IMG/VR virus record: IMGVR_UViG_3300029705_000018
Reading direction: 5' to 3' (one strand)
Source: a virus
Lineage: Duplodnaviria > Heunggongvirae > Uroviricota > Caudoviricetes
DNA length: 64,000 nucleotides
Shown here piece by piece: positions 59,655-64,000 of the stretch. The position numbers and the translations under genes were made by a program. Every line of letters begins with the position of its first letter. The stretch's first letter is position 1. The notes beneath the pieces were generated by a model, which saw only the letters and a program-made list of their open reading frames with translations, was not told the origin of the DNA and did no database searches.

Positions 59655-59825
59655 CTCTACCCTTATTTTTATTTTTGATTACGAGAGCGTTCATTATAAA
59701 ATAAATTACTAACACCCAATCATCGGAAGAATTTTGCCAAGAGGCAAGGTTTATATACTTGATAAAATACTGCAAATATATAAAACTCTCAAAGAGAGTT
59801 ATAAATAAAGTCAATAACAAAACAG
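59655..59825 (-). repeat. Conserved spacer element, copy 1. It is about 85 percent identical to 62690..62860 and lies 3' (minus-strand sense) of TR1.
   Basis: It shares blocks such as cgttcattata...aaactctcaaagagagttataaataaa with copy 2, and contains the hairpin aactctc aaa gagagtt. Confidence 0.6.
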
Positions 59826-59960
59826 TGGCCACCGATATTCGCATTCGCATTCGACGTGGAATTGTTCAAATTCAGATAGAAAGGACCAGTATTCAGCCTG
59901 TTATTCCAATTACTACTGAAGTTCGTGACGTGAGACGAATTGCAATTCGTATCGTGGAAT
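59826..59960 (-). repeat. DGR template repeat TR1, non-coding
   Basis: It aligns with 60037..60170 over about 120 nt. In that stretch every mismatch is a plus-strand T in TR1 (a minus-strand A) against C, G or A in the variable repeat. Confidence 0.7.
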
Positions 59961-60020
59961 AAATATTTTATCGTATAAGTAACCCATATATTCAAAGAAT
60001 TTTACTATTCTTTAAATTTT

Positions 60021-61214
60021 TTATAATTTTTGGATGCGGCCACCGACATTCGCACTCGCACTCGACGCGGAATCGTTCAAACGCAGAAAGAAAGGACCAG
60101 AAGCCAGCCCGTTAGCCCAATAACCACCGAAGCGCGCGACGCGAGACGAATTGCAACCCGCATAATCAGAGAAGTAAGTTGTACCACTACCTCCTTTAGC
60201 CGTTATAACAAATCCGCCTTCACTAGTACCTAAACAATTGGTATAATATCCATAAGTATTACTAGTGAGTCCAGAAGCATTGGTAAATTCATAATTAGTG
60301 CCAGAATCATCAAAAGCTCCAGTAGTAGTTAAATAATTTCTAGAAGCATCAGTAACAATGCCATCACACCATTTAGAAATATTACCCCAAAAATTTTCAA
60401 TTCCCGCAAATTTCATACCTTCAGTATCCGTTCCACCATAATCCAATCCTTGATTATTCATTGTTCCAGTAATAATAGGAGCAGAATTAGAACTATTAGT
60501 ATAACCATATCCGAGAGCAGTTTGTCCATTCAAAGATTTATATTTTATAACATACATGGCCTATAAATAAACTAATTGATAGTAAGCAAACTACTCATAA
60601 CCATCGCCATTTAGTTGGGCTGCCGCACGAAACTCACTAATAGTTTTAGAAGCCGTAGGGGTTTTATTACTTAAACTACGTAATTTACCATCACTATCAA
60701 TATAGCCATCATAAGCACCAGTATAAAATGTATCTAAATCTTTATTATGCGTATGTGCGTAATAAGTAAAATCTGTATTAGCAATATCATTTGTAAAACT
60801 AACAGTAACTTTATTATCGTCGCTTTTAGTAATTCTTAATCCTCTTCTTGGAAAAGCAATCATTACATCTCCTGCACTTCCACTTTCAATATCTACTGGA
60901 TTACCATTAATATCTTCAGCGTAATTATTAGGATTTAATTTTACAACTTCTACTCCATCTTTCATAAGAACGGGATAATGTCCGAAAAATTCATCCCAAG
61001 CAGAAGATTTTGCTTCCATGGTAAATGCGTCATCCTCATAAGAACAACAAGTGTCAGGATTAGAATCATTTAAATCAATAATAACAGTCATTACTTTTAC
61101 CGGCTCTTCATCTAGTTTTGTTCCAATTTCAATTAACGCATCTTCAATATGCTCCACATGAGAAGCACACCACTTATCAACAAAATCATGTAAATTCATT
61201 CTTTCATAAGGCAT
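60021..61214 (-). CDS. DGR target protein 1, with the variable repeat VR1 at its 3' end (about 60035..60180). It has two in-frame TAG codons read as Gln.
   Basis: Track ORFs 60591..61214 and 60021..60557 share a frame and are joined by TAGs at 60591-60593 and 60561-60563. Read-through gives DGYE(TAG)FAYYQLVYL(TAG)AMYVIKYKSLNGQ. Paralogue 63029..63913 reads DTYEQFAWFQLIYLQAMFIMKYKSINGQ, with Gln codons at both positions. The C-terminus RVARFGGYWANG...GGRIQKL is a CLec/FGE-like DGR variable region. Confidence 0.7.
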
Positions 61215-61346
61215 AAATTCACATCCTATTCTTACTTATTTAATATTTTATCAATTTCCTCTTGTAAATTTGGAAATCTCAAAATTACTGCATCATAATC
61301 TAATTTTCCTTCTTTAATTCTCATAGCTAAGTATTCAGCCATAAAA

Positions 61347-61577
61347 TTACACCCCCATAATAATAGCATCTAAAGCATTTTTCATAATCTCATTTTCATC
61401 AGACATTTTCTTTAGATACTCGTCTTTGCTATATTGAATCTCTTCATATTCATAATAAACATGACCTTTTTCATCAACTTTTTCGATAATATTATTATGA
61501 ATATAAACAGTAGTTTTTCCAATCACTAAAGGTTTTGCCTGCTCGGCACTACCTCGCACGATACCCATATTTTTCAT
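61347..61577 (-). CDS. Small hypothetical protein between the RT and target 1. It could be an accessory-variability-type factor, but that is unproven.
   Basis: 76-aa ORF overlapping the RT 3' end in another frame. Confidence 0.25.
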   Translation of the reverse strand: MKNMGIVRGSAEQAKPLVIGKTTVYIHNNIIEKVDEKGHVYYEYEEIQYSKDEYLKKMSDENEIMKNALDAIIMGV

Positions 61578-62640
61578 ATCTTTGTATCTCCTTTCCTTGA
61601 ATAACGCATTTTTTATATATCTCCATAGAACGATAAAATGTTCTAAAATATTTATTAATAAAATTAGACATTGTTGTCTAATCTATTATCCCTTTATAAG
61701 AGAAAAAAGCACAAAATTCGTGATAAGTTGGTAAAAATATTTCATCTCGATAATAAGAATTATATAACATTTTTATTATAAATTTTCTCACCTTTTTATA
61801 AGTTCGTTTACGCAAAATAATTCTATTATGAAAATGTCTATATCCTACAAAATCTATTCCCCTAATATCTACAGGAAAAATCTAATAATTATCTTTTATT
61901 TCTAATTTTAATTCTTCTTGAAGATATTTTTTTATTTGATAAAAATATTTCCATAACTATTTTTTATTATTTCCTAAAATTACTATATCATCCATATAAC
62001 GAATAATATATTTAATTTTCAATTCTTCTTTACACCAATGATCAAAAAATGATAAATAATAATTTGATAAATATTGTGATAGATAAGAACCAATAGGTAA
62101 ACCATTATTACAACTTTCAATAATTTTATCTAAAAGCAATAAAGTCTATTTATCTTTAATTTTTTTACGAATTAGTTTTTGTAAAATAGTTTGATTAATA
62201 TTTGGATAAAATTTTTTTATATCAATTTTCAAGCAATACTAAGTATTTTTAACATCTTTTAGATATTTTTTAGTAAGATTAGTTGCTCGTGTAATTCCGG
62301 CATTTTTTATAGAAGCACAACTATGATAACAAAAATGTTTTACTAAAGTTGGTTCTAACTATAACATAATGGCCCATTGAATAATTCTATCTGGATAATA
62401 AGGAAGTTTCATAATTTCTCGCTCTTTTCCACTATCCTAAATTATTGAATGCTTATAGAGTGAAACCTAATATTCATTATTTAATAATATTTGTTGAATC
62501 TATTTTAGATTATTATCTAAATCTTTTTCAACTTTTTTTACTGAACGATAATGAGATTTATCCTATTTAGCCATTTTGTGTGCTAACCGCAAATTATCCA
62601 TATTACATATTTTATCAAAAATATTATTTAGACGTTTCAT
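61495..62640 (-). CDS. DGR reverse transcriptase with about 10 in-frame TAG codons read as Gln. The 3' end is approximate.
   Basis: My single-frame minus-strand translation from ATG 62638-62640 runs MKRLNNIFDKICNMDNLRLAHKMAK(TAG)DKSHYRSV...DSGKEREIMKLPYYPDRIIQWAIM...LKIDIKKFYPNINQTILQ...GLPIGSYLSQYLSNYYLSFFDHW...IRYMDDIVILG...IFPVDIRGIDFVGY. These are RT domains 1 to 7 including YMDD. Every stop in about 350 codons is TAG, with no TAA or TGA. The track sees only the 60-aa fragment 61957..62139. Confidence 0.7.
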
Positions 62641-62689
62641 ATTAATTCCTTCTATAATTATTGTTATTTTTATAAGGTTTTAGTAAAAA

Positions 62690-62860
62690 ATATTTTTACT
62701 AAAACCTTATTTTATTTTGACTGAGAGAACGTTCATTATAATAAAATAATTACTAATACCCATTATCAGAAGAATTTTACCAAGAGGTAAGGTTTATGTA
62801 TTTAGAAAAATATTATATATAAAACTCTCAAAGAGAGTTATAAATAAAATAACAAAAGAG
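62690..62860 (-). repeat. Conserved spacer element, copy 2, lying between TR2 and the RT gene
   Basis: It is about 85 percent identical to 59655..59825. Confidence 0.6.
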
Positions 62861-63000
62861 TGCGTGCCGATATTCGAATCCGTATTGTCGGGTGTTTCAT
62901 TCACATTGAAGATGAAAGGTCCAGTATTCAGACTATTATTCCAATAACCGCTGAAATTCGCTACGTTACTGGGATTGACATTCGAATTATCGGAAGTATA
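62861..63000 (-). repeat. DGR template repeat TR2, non-coding
   Basis: It aligns with 63040..63180. Mismatches are plus-strand T in TR2 against C, G or A in VR2. TR2 differs substantially from TR1. Confidence 0.7.
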
Positions 63001-63028
63001 TTTTTCCATACAATTAACCTATATTATT

Positions 63029-64000
63029 TTATAGTTTTTGGACGCGCGCGCCGATATTCGAAGCCGCATCGTCGGGCGTACCATCCACACCGAAGAGGAA
63101 AGGCCCAGCAACCAGACCATCATCCCAACAACCGCCGAAACGCGCCACGCGACCGGGATAGACATCCGAAGCATCGGAAAAATAAGTTGTCTCGCTACCA
63201 GCACCGATCATTTTCTTTAACGCAAAACCGCCTTCAGAAGTGGCACAAGGATAAATTAAATAATCCTCTAAATAACCATTTTCGGCAACTTGTTCTGTAT
63301 CAACTTCCGCAGTAATTTCGTATCCTTCACCATAGTCGTTGAAATTATTAGTTGTAATTTTATAATTGCAATTATCATCAGAGACAATGCCATCAACCCA
63401 ATTCCAAATATTACCCCAGAAATTTTCAATACCAGCAAATTTCATACCTTGAGTCATATCTGTGTTATCTCCGTCATAGGGAATACCCCAGTCCAAACTG
63501 CAAGTATTCATAATGCCAGAAGCTATTGCTTCCTCTCCATTTACATTACCACATCCAAGAGAAGATTGGCCATTAATTGATTTATACTTCATAATAAACA
63601 TAGCTTGTAAATAAATTAATTGAAACCAAGCAAATTGTTCATAAGTATCTCCATTGTTGTGTGCGGCCGCACGTGCTTCACCGATTGTTATATTACAAGC
63701 AGGAGTTTTACCACTCAAACTACGTAATTTATTATTTTCATCAATATACCCATTATAAGCACCGATATAAAATGTATCTAATGAATTATTATTAAAAGTA
63801 TGAGCGTAATATTCAAAATTATCAGGATCTTCAATATTGGTAAAACTAATTCTTATTTTCATATCAATCTCATTTCCTGTAATTCTTAATCCTCTTCTTG
63901 GAAAAGCAATCATTACATCTCCTGCACTTCCACTTTCAATATCTACTGGATTACCATTAATATCTTCAGCGTAATTATTAGGATTTAATTTTACAACTTC
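63029..64000 (-). CDS. DGR target protein 2 (paralogue of target 1), with VR2 at its 3' end (about 63040..63180). The 5' end is outside the window.
   Basis: Track ORF 63029..63913. The frame continues upstream to the window edge, and 63901..64000 is identical to 60851..60950 of target 1. The C-terminus is GRVARFGGCWDDG...GARVQKL. Confidence 0.65.
   Translation of the reverse strand, partial: EVVKLNPNNYAEDINGNPVDIESGSAGDVMIAFPRRGLRITGNEIDMKIRISFTNIEDPDNFEYYAHTFNNNSLDTFYIGAYNGYIDENNKLRSLSGKTPACNITIGEARAAAHNNGDTYEQFAWFQLIYLQAMFIMKYKSINGQSSLGCGNVNGEEAIASGIMNTCSLDWGIPYDGDNTDMTQGMKFAGIENFWGNIWNWVDGIVSDDNCNYKITTNNFNDYGEGYEITAEVDTEQVAENGYLEDYLIYPCATSEGGFALKKMIGAGSETTYFSDASDVYPGRVARFGGCWDDGLVAGPFLFGVDGTPDDAASNIGARVQKL

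Follow-up and report, generated by a model that had tools for sequence, protein, structure and literature searches.

Closest Described Systems and the Layout of the Locus

In the diversity-generating retroelement (DGR) of Bordetella phage BPP-1 (mtd-avd-TR-Sp-brt), the template repeat (TR) is accompanied by a cis-acting spacer (Sp) RNA, cDNA synthesis is primed in cis, a duplex bracketing the TR acts as a stop, and the mechanism requires Avd (bioRxiv 10.1101/2023.10.23.563531). The BPP-1 spacer RNA belongs to Rfam class RT-10 (PMC5737381). Two further motifs, RT-17 (RF03020) and RT-18 (RF03021), are presented in Rfam merely as lying near reverse transcriptase (RT) genes, with a speculative function (Weinberg et al. 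2017, PMC5737381).

The phage studied here has a genome of approximately 206 kb, reads TAG as glutamine and carries a DGR. The stretch that we analysed, hereafter the window, comprises 64,000 nucleotides (64 kb) of this genome. All parts of the DGR lie on the minus strand, in the order target 2 with its variable repeat (VR2), TR2, RNA 2, RT, target 1 with VR1, TR1 and RNA 1. A previous sequence-only reading had recognised a DGR at this location, and each element of that interpretation survived testing, with some refinement. The assignment is supported by the placement of the RT in a DGR clade, the adenine-specific differences between TRs and VRs, and the location of the VRs at the C-termini of proteins with a C-type lectin (CLec) fold. 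We regard it as very probable that this is a working DGR in a TAG-recoded phage, in which a single RT gene is combined with two self-contained template modules, each diversifying its own target.

Similarly to BPP-1, the locus combines CLec-fold tail receptor-binding targets bearing a C-terminal VR, an invariant TR and, after it, a structured spacer RNA that precedes the RT, adenine-specific mutagenesis, GC-rich IMH-like 3' ends that tell VR from TR, and a TR-flanking duplex that resembles the 'cPRT Stop' (bioRxiv 10.1101/2023.10.23.563531). In contrast, BPP-1 has a single TR and depends on Avd, whereas here we find two TR-RNA modules, no Avd detected in the window, an RT-17-like element rather than an RT-10 spacer and a TAG-recoded RT.

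Phage DGRs with more than one TR-VR pair per RT (surveyed multi-TR DGRs, Lera and ct1yV3) and amber-suppressed DGR RTs are already in print, as the TR-related passages of two papers make clear (PMC6642488, PMC12386605). Zeta crAss-like phages, as described in those passages, share with our phage the tail-fibre CLec targets and, in some, the amber suppression of the RT gene (PMC12386605). In the same account, however, the extra pairs of Lera and ct1yV3 show non-A substitutions and were regarded as possibly inactive, and these phages possess Avd (PMC12386605), whereas both pairs of the present phage are strictly A-specific and diversifying, each with a complete RNA module. No spacer-RNA analysis for each TR was found in the TR-related passages of either paper (PMC6642488, PMC12386605). 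The arrangement is less unusual than the sequence-only reading had supposed, since both features have precedents (PMC6642488, PMC12386605). The locus is an unusually clean two-module example of a type of system already known.

A second two-module layout occurs in the L049 family (IMG/VR, e.g., IMGVR_UViG_3300000286_000005), which also has one RT (48% identical to ours and TAG-recoded, with 8 TAGs) and two TR + RT-17 modules. The RT-distal cassette of this family is active in nature: of its 25 variable VR columns, 23 coincide with TR adenines (p = 1.6e-10). The extra module of the family is found 5.2-5.8 kb upstream of the module linked to the RT, whereas that of our phage lies downstream of the RT; this difference points to either an independent origin of the two layouts or a rearrangement.

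Template Repeats, Variable Repeats and Targets

The repeats and their target genes are as follows:

59824..59956, minus strand: TR1, template repeat for VR1, distant from the RT gene
60035..60167, minus strand: VR1, variable repeat at the C-terminus of target 1, offset +211 from TR1
60021..61214, minus strand: gene for target 1 (397 aa; 2 in-frame TAGs), paralog of target 2
62859..62998, minus strand: TR2, template repeat for VR2
63043..63182, minus strand: VR2, variable repeat at the C-terminus of target 2, offset +184 from TR2
63029..64000, minus strand: 3' part of target gene 2, an ORF for a tail protein with a predicted C-terminal CLec fold

The repeats were found where they had been placed before. 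Every mismatch in the core of each pair falls at a TR adenine, that is, a T on the plus strand and an A on the coding strand: 25/25 in TR1/VR1 (59826-59952; chance probability ~8e-14) and 32/32 in TR2/VR2 (~1e-16). The adenine-only pattern claimed from the sequence is therefore upheld, and the accompanying figure of about 25 differences per pair is exact for the first pair and becomes 32 for the second. Non-A mismatches between TR and VR are limited to the outer 1-4 bases, where homology stops. The TRs, described previously as only loosely similar, are indeed 68-70% identical to each other, and non-A mismatches number 0 in cognate TR-VR pairs against 24-28 in crossed pairs, which shows that each TR templates its own VR only.

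Target 1 matches phrog_5302 'tail protein' (1e-54); its in-frame TAGs align with CAA glutamine codons of target 2, and its counterparts in relatives are annotated at 397 aa. The start of target 2 lies beyond the window edge, the full gene being 408 aa in relatives (full-length homologs P0001 and P0102). An AlphaFold model of target 2 (pLDDT 93) has TaqVP, Mtd and TvpA as top Foldseek matches, the best being TaqVP (E 6e-10). The predicted fold of the targets is thus the DGR-type CLec fold. The proposal of two paralogous CLec-type targets holds in full: the proteins are paralogs ending ...RVARFGG.W..., with the VRs at their C-termini.

A Single Recoded Reverse Transcriptase

Between the two targets lie the following coding features:

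61495..62640, minus strand: gene for the 381-aa DGR reverse transcriptase, with TAG read as Gln at 11 in-frame codons
61232..61577, minus strand: pair of small ORFs, 76 aa (61347-61577) and 36 aa (61232-61342), lying between RT and target 1

The RT frame (62640..61495) is open given TAG readthrough, matches Pfam RVT_1 (2.5e-19) and phrog_1423 (6e-101), and contains the motifs YMDD and IGSYLSQ, in agreement with the original RT call. In ENA relatives the RT gene is likewise called at 381 aa. Its identity to any deposited phage RT is at most ~52%, with Bordetella phages among the matches. The TAGs align with invariant glutamines of standard-code relatives, and so the RT needs TAG-to-Gln decoding, as had been claimed, at 11 codons rather than about 10. 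More than half of the RT glutamine codons are TAG; therefore, the full-length enzyme would be made only while amber suppression is active. Neither Avd nor any other accessory protein was detected in the window. The two small ORFs match PHROG families of unknown function, are not Avd-like and gave no match in a Pfam search.

This is the sole RT of the window, which agrees with the earlier notion of one RT servicing two TR-spacer cassettes, its action in trans being the conditional part of that notion. With ~142 kb of the ~206-kb genome outside the window and RNA modules that differ by 10-20%, one could envisage that the visible RT copies TR2 while a second RT encoded elsewhere copies TR1. Nevertheless, we consider a second enzyme improbable. 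No further RT was found in the 64-kb window, nor within 6 kb of the locus in the relatives L174-L177. The two modules have all conserved RT-17-type motifs in common, and no other non-coding part of the duplication is conserved as well, as expected if both must fit one protein. Moreover, in the independent L049 family, too, both modules are recognised as RT-17, and the 12-15 kb covered there contain a single RT. Thus, diversification of the VRs at both cassettes would presumably be the work of this particular RT.

A Structured RNA Linked to Each Template Repeat

Each module is composed of the following parts:

62997..63020, minus strand: module 2 5' arm (inverted repeat I18, duplex analysis), predicted to pair with 62791-62814 and bracket TR2
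62823..62839, minus strand: module 2 P1 hairpin, AACUCUC-UUU-GAGAGUU, ~20 nt downstream of TR2
62791..62814, minus strand: module 2 3' arm, ending in AACC, directly 5' of hairpin P2
62710..62795, minus strand: module 2 RT-17-like core, with P2 (UACC-UCUU-GGUA, then AAAA), P3, P4, P5 and an A-rich tail
62672..62710, minus strand: module 2 terminal hairpin, 18 bp, separating module 2 from the RT start codon
59961..59985, minus strand: module 1 5' arm (inverted repeat I13), predicted to pair with 59748-59771
59784..59800, minus strand: module 1 P1 hairpin
59748..59771, minus strand: module 1 3' arm
59668..59752, minus strand: module 1 RT-17-like core, with P2 as UGCC-UCUU-GGCA
59635..59663, minus strand: module 1 terminal hairpin, followed by a ribosome-binding site and the start of a 61-aa ORF

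Over 140 aligned columns (59663-59800 vs 62706-62839) the post-TR elements share 90% identity, and a gapped global alignment gives 80%; the TRs reach 68% and the flanking DNA 45-50%. Both copies contain the hairpin AACTCTC-AAA-GAGAGTT (59784-59800, 62823-62839). The conservation put at 85% by the sequence-only reading is thus well founded. The extent of the unit is not, as it exceeds the ~170-nt spacer by including an arm upstream of the TR that pairs with the spacer.

Comparative evidence supports a fold common to both copies. Pairing in the three-helix core is 95.5% vs 30-47% in slid controls, and 7/10 pairs show a compensatory change; over cassette 1, cassette 2 and the relative L170, 119/120 cells are paired and 10/40 pairs are compensatory, with 6 compensatory pair changes separating the two cassettes of this genome. 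Compensatory changes set the 5' arm of module 2 apart from cassette 1 and from L170, and the P1 stem of the module has two such changes in L170. For the TR-bracketing helix, cognate arms reach -16.7 kcal/mol vs -11.6 for non-cognate ones (p = 4e-6); support for this duplex is comparative, because the window sequences by themselves are no more stable than shuffled AT-rich sequence. The terminal hairpins fold at -18.7 kcal/mol (z -6.8) in module 2 and -15.3 kcal/mol (z -2.9) in module 1.

The window elements share the RT-17/RT-18 consensus of ACCUUGCC-loop-GGCAAAA, a helix interrupted by UAGUA...GAA (in module 2, the internal loop of helices P3-P5) and an A-rich tail. Scores above the RT-17 gathering threshold of 40.4 bits are reached by nine relatives, both L049 copies among them, whereas the AT-rich copies of the window fall below gathering scores (module 1: RT-17 35.1, RT-18 29.7 bits; module 2: RT-17 26.9, RT-18 33.3 bits). 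An RNA model built in this analysis (R2) gives 63.3 bits (E 6e-12) for module 1 and 59.3 bits (E 6e-11) for module 2. The post-TR element is a divergent relative of Rfam RT-17, and covariation in the alignments supports its being a structured RNA, as first suggested. By analogy with BPP-1, it may be needed for cDNA priming.

Unlike the Rfam description, the motif is here tied to a TR, extends into the TR-bracketing helix and can lie kilobases from the RT. In ~160 related loci the RNA is present once, adjoining the RT; a second copy exists only in this phage and in the L049 family, in each case directly after the extra TR. The RNA is therefore linked to the TR, not to the RT gene. An element that in nearly all relatives lies directly upstream of the RT start codon, as a 5' UTR would, with a P1 flagged as terminator-like in a scan and a strong hairpin at the end of each module, might otherwise be taken for a regulatory 5' leader, attenuator or terminator, the likeness of the copies stemming from duplication alone. 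However, module 1 and the RT-distal L049 RNAs keep sequence, structure and compensatory changes with no RT gene downstream, and the RNA always keeps its place with respect to a TR. One portion of the RNA pairs with TR-upstream sequence, an interaction that would be senseless in a leader of the next gene, and the spacers are more conserved (80-90%) than the TRs and coding sequence of the same duplication. We judge such a leader even less likely than a second enzyme.

Natural Variation at Both Cassettes

Activity was assessed at the contig level, by comparing the near-identical metagenome contigs L169, L171, L174 and L176 with the window or with each other. Of the 16 sites at which L174 differs from L176 over 11.9 kb, 14 lie in VR1 (13 at TR1 adenines), 2 in VR2 and none elsewhere. 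All 5 differences between the window and L171 (6,289 nt) are in VR2 at TR2 adenines, as are 18 of the 29 that separate it from L169. Against L174, VR1 has 18 differences (16 at TR1 adenines) and VR2 has 17, all at TR2 adenines, while TR1, TR2 and Sp1 are identical and background divergence is 0.35-0.6%; overall, VR2 shows 17-18 differences from L169, L174 and L176, each at a TR2 adenine. TR2 is identical in the window and all four contigs, and TR1 in the window, L171, L174 and L176. The 15 natural VR2 variants have 21 hypervariable codons, every one of which corresponds to an A-containing TR2 codon, and the 14 sampled VR1 sequences are all distinct, with 17 of 18 hypervariable codons at A-containing TR1 codons. 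The variability at adenine sites that the previous reading anticipated is thus present in both VRs, almost solely at TR adenines. Read from contig sequences, these comparisons show both cassettes to be active, VR1 and VR2 having diversified recently in nature while the TRs stayed invariant.

The least probable alternative, that only the RT-proximal TR2/VR2 pair functions and that cassette 1 is a decaying duplicate whose TR1/VR1 differences are fossils of past activity, could draw on a code-11 C-terminal ORF of target 1 (P0057) that is identical on 18-21 contigs and forms a single-member 90% cluster, on the confinement of window-L171 changes to VR2, and on the degenerate extra pairs of Lera and ct1yV3 in the passages noted above (PMC12386605), but it is already contradicted by the window, L174 and L176 comparisons and the VR1 variant set, the contigs with identical P0057 being JGI assemblies of essentially one strain, the single-member cluster a clustering artefact (the 14 distinct VR1 sequences come from the full-length cluster), the TR1/VR1 core free of non-A mismatches, and every helix of module 1 retained through compensatory changes.

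Proposed Mechanism

For the DGR with one RT and two template modules, we propose that each module would be one transcript segment comprising 5' arm, TR, P1, 3' arm and RT-17-type core (P2-P5 and A-rich tail), with the arms pairing to bracket the TR. The single RT may bind either module, including, in trans, the one 2.7 kb downstream of the RT gene. Synthesis of cDNA would start inside the downstream RNA (cis-priming), proceed through the TR with misreading of adenines, and probably stop at the bracketing helix. The cDNA would then replace the matching VR only, at the 3' end of the neighbouring tail-protein gene, so that two paralogous receptor-binding CLec domains would be diversified independently, with RT production possibly timed through recoding (amber suppression). 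As the related metagenome contigs indicate, two paralogous tail proteins are rewritten in nature, each by its own template module.

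Organization of the Locus and Its Reverse Transcriptase

The locus comprises two target genes, two template cassettes and a reverse transcriptase (RT), arranged as follows:

Target start beyond the window edge, end 63029; VR2 at 63182..63043, minus strand: target 2 with VR2
62998..62859, minus strand: TR2
about 62858..62706, minus strand: conserved RNA after TR2
62710..62672, minus strand: terminal hairpin of module 2, separating the RNA from the RT start codon
62640..61495, minus strand: RT
between RT and target 1, minus strand: two small ORFs
61214..60021, VR1 at 60167..60035, minus strand: target 1 with VR1
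59956..59824, minus strand: TR1
about 59823..59663, minus strand: second copy of the conserved RNA, after TR1
59663..59635, minus strand: terminal hairpin of module 1

VR1 and VR2 each stop 12-14 nt short of the stop codon of their target. Because the window is 100% identical to L177, taken from a 205,925-bp JGI contig, we place the phage genome at ~206 kb. The rest of the window, with a DnaB-like helicase, an NAD-dependent ligase, both topoisomerase II subunits, PhoH, NAMPT and an RNA ligase, fits a large phage genome.

With TAG read through, the RT frame is open over 381 codons. It matches Pfam RVT_1 (2.5e-19) and PHROG 1423 (phrog_1423, 'reverse transcriptase', 6e-101), and carries IGSYLSQ, corresponding to the domain-4 motif [LIV]GxxxSQ, as well as the YxDD catalytic motif in the form YMDD, as the sequence-only reading had it. 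The enzyme belongs to the DGR clade; as a group II intron, retron or DRT enzyme it scores far under the NCBIfam cut-offs. The nearest deposited RTs, from Psychrobacillus phage Perkons and crAss-like phages (44-52% identity), are annotated there as RT genes. Searching with the RT against IMG/VR, JGI metagenomes and deposited phages gave no close relative (identity at most 52%); it was only the target protein that led to close relatives. No second RT was found in the window or in the 6-kb flanks of relatives, in agreement with the single enzyme initially proposed. One otherwise identical metagenome contig (L173, JGI 3300020079) has a 20-nt deletion at window 61525-61544, where the RT overlaps at its 3' end with the beginning of a 76-aa ORF; this could be a C-terminal variant of the RT or an allele that has been inactivated.

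Target and Accessory Proteins

Targets 1 and 2 are paralogs, and target 1 matches PHROG 5302 (phrog_5302, 'tail protein', 1e-54). Among PDB structures, an AlphaFold model of target 2 (46 homologs, pLDDT 93) best matches DGR variable proteins, with TaqVP (E 6e-10) ahead of Mtd and TvpA, and after these CLec folds of the FGE/EgtB type, which upholds the earlier placement of the VRs at the C-termini of paralogous CLec-type targets. No further CLec C-terminus and no remote VR was found in the window. Regarding accessory proteins, the neighbouring small ORFs (142, 76, 36 and 61 aa) gave no Pfam family match to an Avd/HRDC-type protein, only sub-threshold chance matches (E at least 0.007), although a divergent Avd, or one encoded farther away, may be present. 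Avd is reported to be absent from most DGRs found in Zeta crAss-like phages (PMC12386605). Apart from the accessory protein, a feature that is not universal, all criteria that can be tested identify the locus as a DGR.

In the N-terminal half of the target paralogs a 122-nt stretch (60829-60950 and 63879-64000) is 100% identical, against 61-64% for the remainder of the genes, which points to a recent gene conversion or else to a strongly constrained virion-attaching part. Upstream of target 2 in relatives (L174 2435-2899 and 2931-4160, past window position 64000), lies a separate gene of 153-154 aa with the Mtd N-terminal domain PF18454, followed by a 409-aa Ala-rich coiled-coil fibre protein and an ORF of 142 aa. 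Several genes thus seem to share what makes up the Mtd-like tail module. The 409-aa gene, of similar length to the targets, was considered as a third paralog and rejected, since it encodes an unrelated Ala-rich coiled-coil protein. On the other side of the locus, homology to the related contigs L174 and L176 ends just downstream of cassette 1 (window about 59357): these contigs encode a 551-aa Flg_new-repeat protein (L174 9597-11252), and the window a 293-aa ORF with no family match (58391-59272). A gene-swap hotspot appears to adjoin the DGR.

TAG Is Read as Glutamine

In this phage TAG is read as Gln (genetic code 15). The RT TAG at the NYQ(I/V)FP motif aligns with Gln in 8/8 standard-code relatives, and the TAG at a second conserved column with Gln in four relatives, three of them standard-code and one, the single-cassette relative L170, TAG-recoded. 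Target 2 has CAA Gln codons at the positions of both in-frame TAGs of target 1. With TAG as sense, the RT regains its 381 aa and a 1393-aa ORF appears, and in ENA relatives the RT and target 1 are called at 381 and 397 aa, the exact read-through lengths. The need for TAG-to-Gln decoding in the RT, put forward from the sequence alone, is confirmed by the Gln alignments, and the proposed count of about 10 codons is corrected to 11. TAG use is very uneven, with 11 in the 381 codons of the RT (more than half its Gln codons), three in the 1393-aa ORF, two in target 1 and none in most genes of the window, replication genes among them. This pattern fits a recoding that falls mainly on one set of genes, perhaps late genes. 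No tRNA gene of any kind, and so no suppressor tRNA with anticodon CUA, was found within the 64-kb window of the ~206-kb genome.

The 1393-aa ORF (54159-58340, minus strand), seen only with TAG as sense, carries internal direct repeats of the families D10, D11, D14 and D19 (57070-57915) and probably encodes a large fibre or tail protein. Nearby, an 833-aa ORF (51528-54029, minus strand) has no PHROG match, while its counterparts in relatives have precomputed Pfam matches, to MVP_shoulder and more faintly to Vault_3. For a phage, a shoulder domain of vault type is unusual.

Adenine-Specific, Cognate Transfer from TR to VR

Core mismatches between the repeats fall without exception at coding-strand adenines of the TR, 25/25 in TR1/VR1 and 32/32 in TR2/VR2 (chance probabilities of about 1e-13 and 1e-16, respectively, given base composition), and non-A mismatches are confined to the extreme ends, where homology runs out. 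The repeat coordinates and difference counts first read by eye were essentially right, and the adenine-specific DGR signature claimed from them is borne out, as is the loose similarity of the two TRs (68% identity). Over 126 nt the cognate pairs TR1-VR1 and TR2-VR2 have zero non-A mismatches, versus 24-28 in the crossed pairs: templating is strictly cognate, each TR into its own VR. The 3' ends of the VRs are GC-rich (CGGTGGCCGC and CGGCGCGCGCG) and are separated from the corresponding TR versions (CGGTGGCCAC and CGGCACGCAC) by A-to-G changes fixed in all variants, a contrast consistent with the pattern of IMH (VR) and IMH* (TR) by which DGRs fix the direction of transfer.

Both Cassettes Diversify in Nature

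Comparison with related contigs shows variation at the adenine-templated positions, which the sequence-only reading had suggested looking for in reads. At the contig level the TRs are invariant and both VRs vary, almost only at TR-A positions. Between the window and L171 there are five differences in 6,289 nt spanning both cassettes, all in VR2 at TR2-A. Similarly, 18 of the 29 differences from L169 (98.5% identical) fall within the 140-nt VR2, all at TR2-A, and none in TR2. The contigs L174 and L176 align gaplessly with the window (98.3-98.4% identical, background divergence 0.35-0.6%) and differ from it at 17-18 sites of VR2, all at TR2-A, and at 18-22 sites of VR1, 16-21 of them at TR1-A; TR1, TR2 and the spacer of cassette 1 (Sp1) are unchanged. 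Compared with each other over 11.9 kb, L174 and L176 have 16 differences, of which 14 lie in VR1 (13 at TR1-A) and two in VR2 (both at TR2-A). The variation of VR1 and VR2 among such close contigs indicates that both cassettes, including the RT-distal one, are diversifying on the shortest timescale observable.

At the protein level, 15 variants of target 2 define 21 hypervariable codons with up to 9 residues per site, 21/21 at A-containing TR2 codons (mostly AAT), and 14 target-1 C-termini, all distinct, define 18, of which 17 are at A-containing TR1 codons. These distinct C-termini dispose of the notion of a static VR1, which had arisen from an identical sequence on 18-21 JGI contigs and from a single-member cluster of P0057 (the code-11 C-terminal ORF of target 1), and which is an artefact of sampling and clustering.

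The five differences between the window and L171 all lie within the 3'-most 15 nt of VR2 (63055-63069), a cluster that looks like a short conversion tract begun at the IMH end.

The Element behind Each TR Belongs to the RT-17 Family

The element behind each TR, claimed at 85% identity when the locus was first read, is real. The two RNA copies are 90% identical over 140 aligned columns, and across the duplicated cassette identity amounts to 80-90% in the RNA, 68% in the TRs, 61-64% in the coding body and VR, and 45-50% in the flanks. Given these values, the RNA is the best-conserved non-coding part of the duplicated cassette.

Against Rfam RT-17 (RF03020) the window copies score 35.1 and 26.9 bits, under the gathering score of 40.4, and both also give sub-threshold matches to RT-18. 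The comparison drew on 80 viral and 80 metagenomic loci, all encoding RT relatives, and on a TR/VR detector combining self-BLAST with adenine bias. The detector gave the canonical layout of target-VR, TR, 110-160-nt spacer and RT for nearly all loci. Among the first 80 RT relatives, about 67 have a TR/VR pair beside the RT; many of the remaining ~13, with no detected pair, are short or cut loci. The spacers of these relatives share a hairpin (NNCC-NCNU-GGNN) followed by AAAA, a helix broken by U(A/G)GUA...GAA, and an inner stem. Alignments and covariation show that the window copies fit the RT-17/RT-18 consensus: hairpin P2 has AAAA behind it, and the internal loop is UAGUA/GAA. In a 23-sequence alignment including both window copies the three-helix core is 95.5% paired, versus 30-47% with slid partners, and 7/10 core pairs show compensatory changes. 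RNAalifold on the MAFFT alignment recovered P2 only; P4 and P5 were proposed by hand and then tested on covariation. Nine relatives exceed the RT-17 gathering threshold (40.7-51.2 bits). The shared features, the core covariation and these nine relatives together place the element in the RT-17 family, of which the window copies are divergent AT-rich members, RT-17-like in behaviour while formally under threshold.

The motifs RT-1 to RT-19 have been described only as located near RT genes (Weinberg et al., PMC5737381). One of them, RT-10, lies between TR and RT in BPP-1, and a primer role was a matter of speculation (Weinberg et al., PMC5737381).

The RNA Accompanies the TR Rather Than the RT Gene

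When only the two window copies were used, the resulting covariance model (R1) proved over-specific, with weak matches, and it was superseded by one from the 23 sequences (R2). With R2, essentially all ~160 loci have exactly one RNA copy, which lies just upstream of the RT. Two exceptions have two copies: the window (59668-59752 and 62710-62795), where there is one match per TR, as had been proposed, and the L049 family from IMG/VR, whose second copy is located 5.2-5.8 kb upstream of the copy linked to the RT. The extra RNA copy directly follows the extra TR in either case, and all other loci have one RNA copy for each TR. A regex match to a second hairpin in another contig (L001) was unconfirmed by R2 and dropped.

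The extra, RT-distal module of the L049 family is active in nature. Across seven contigs its TR and flanks are invariant except for a single T/C difference, the adjacent VR is different in every contig, and 23/25 variable columns of that VR fall at TR adenines (Fisher p = 1.6e-10). The structured RNA travels with the TR rather than with the RT gene. In this respect both TRs of the window and both of the L049 family resemble DGRs of the BPP-1 type, whose structured RNA is TR-linked and lies directly 3' of the TR.

The L049 family (L049 and L081-L088, IMG/VR contigs of 60-100 kb) is a second, independent family with one TAG-recoded RT and two modules of TR plus RT-17.

A Helix Brackets Each TR

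In BPP-1, RNA flanking the TR on both sides wraps the RT-Avd complex and primes cDNA in cis, and the 'cPRT Stop' is a duplex in which a sequence upstream of the TR pairs with a downstream one (Handa et al., bioRxiv 10.1101/2023.10.23.563531). Each TR in the window has, just upstream, a segment complementary to one that ends in AACC right before P2 (inverted repeats I13 and I18). Taken alone, the arm duplex of the window is no more stable than shuffled AT-rich sequence. Because this energy is not significant, the case for the helix is based on the contrast between cognate and non-cognate arms and on compensatory changes. Cognate arms reach -16.7 kcal/mol versus -11.6 kcal/mol for non-cognate ones (28 loci, Mann-Whitney p = 4e-6), and a helix anchored by AGGU.../...ACC, with differing internal sequence, occurs in 19 distinct loci. 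When cassettes 1 and 2 are aligned with L170's single cassette (about 75% identical), 119/120 cells of 40 proposed pairs are paired. Ten pairs are compensatory, six in the bracketing arms, two in P1 (the hairpin near the TR), one in P2 and one in P4, and six of the ten distinguish the two cassettes of the window genome. The RNA helices have been retained by selection. By analogy, the TR-bracketing duplex may be the equivalent of the BPP-1 'cPRT Stop'.

Strong terminal hairpins of mutually unrelated sequence (59635-59663; 62672-62710; L170 about 4012-4038; -15 to -20 kcal/mol) stand directly after the A-rich tail, with no U-tract behind. Candidate roles are RNA 3'-end definition, attenuation and RT binding.

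Proposed Mechanism and Implications

If the BPP-1 analogy holds, either module would be bound in trans by the single RT, cDNA would be primed from within the downstream RNA, synthesis would halt at the bracketing helix, and the cDNA would home into the VR, steered by its GC-rich, IMH-like 3' end. As the RT is packed with TAG codons, it would presumably be produced only once amber suppression is established, which would place retrohoming late in infection. We tentatively put forward, as a joint reading that may well prove wrong, that the RT-17-type RNA and the TR-bracketing arm form a portable and sufficient 'template cartridge', from which any embedded TR is copied in trans by an Avd-less RT, so that phages would gain independent diversification channels merely by duplicating target and cartridge; the TAG-Gln load of the RT could also limit mutagenic retrohoming to a late, suppressor-tRNA-positive phase.

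The category itself is already known, because multi-TR DGRs have been surveyed, amber-suppressed DGR RTs have been reported, and TR-Sp RNA supplied in trans is routine in BPP-1 genetics and engineered systems. A survey lists 271 multi-VR DGRs among 948; since 216 of them have only one TR, about 55 would have several (PMC6642488). For Zeta crAss-like phages, a 2025 account describes seven DGR RT genes with amber suppression and two genomes with three TR-VR pairs, the extra pairs being degenerate-looking (PMC12386605). As far as literature searches show, what is new here is a full cis-RNA module per TR, the activity of both modules in nature, the linkage of the RT-17 motif to the TR with its extension into a TR-bracketing helix, and the presence of two co-resident diverged, compensated modules that define the sequence space tolerated by one RT.

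The locus is a natural experiment on how DGRs use RNA. Since the RT-17-type motif, whose function was previously speculative, is found beside the RT-distal TR of a diversifying cassette, it can be assigned to the template and not to RT expression. Two active paralogous modules, 10-20% different and with six compensatory pairs, show which nucleotides can be changed and which helices have to be kept, a comparison directly useful for engineering multi-target DGR mutagenesis. Finally, the heavy TAG load of the RT ties diversification to the recoding programme of the phage.
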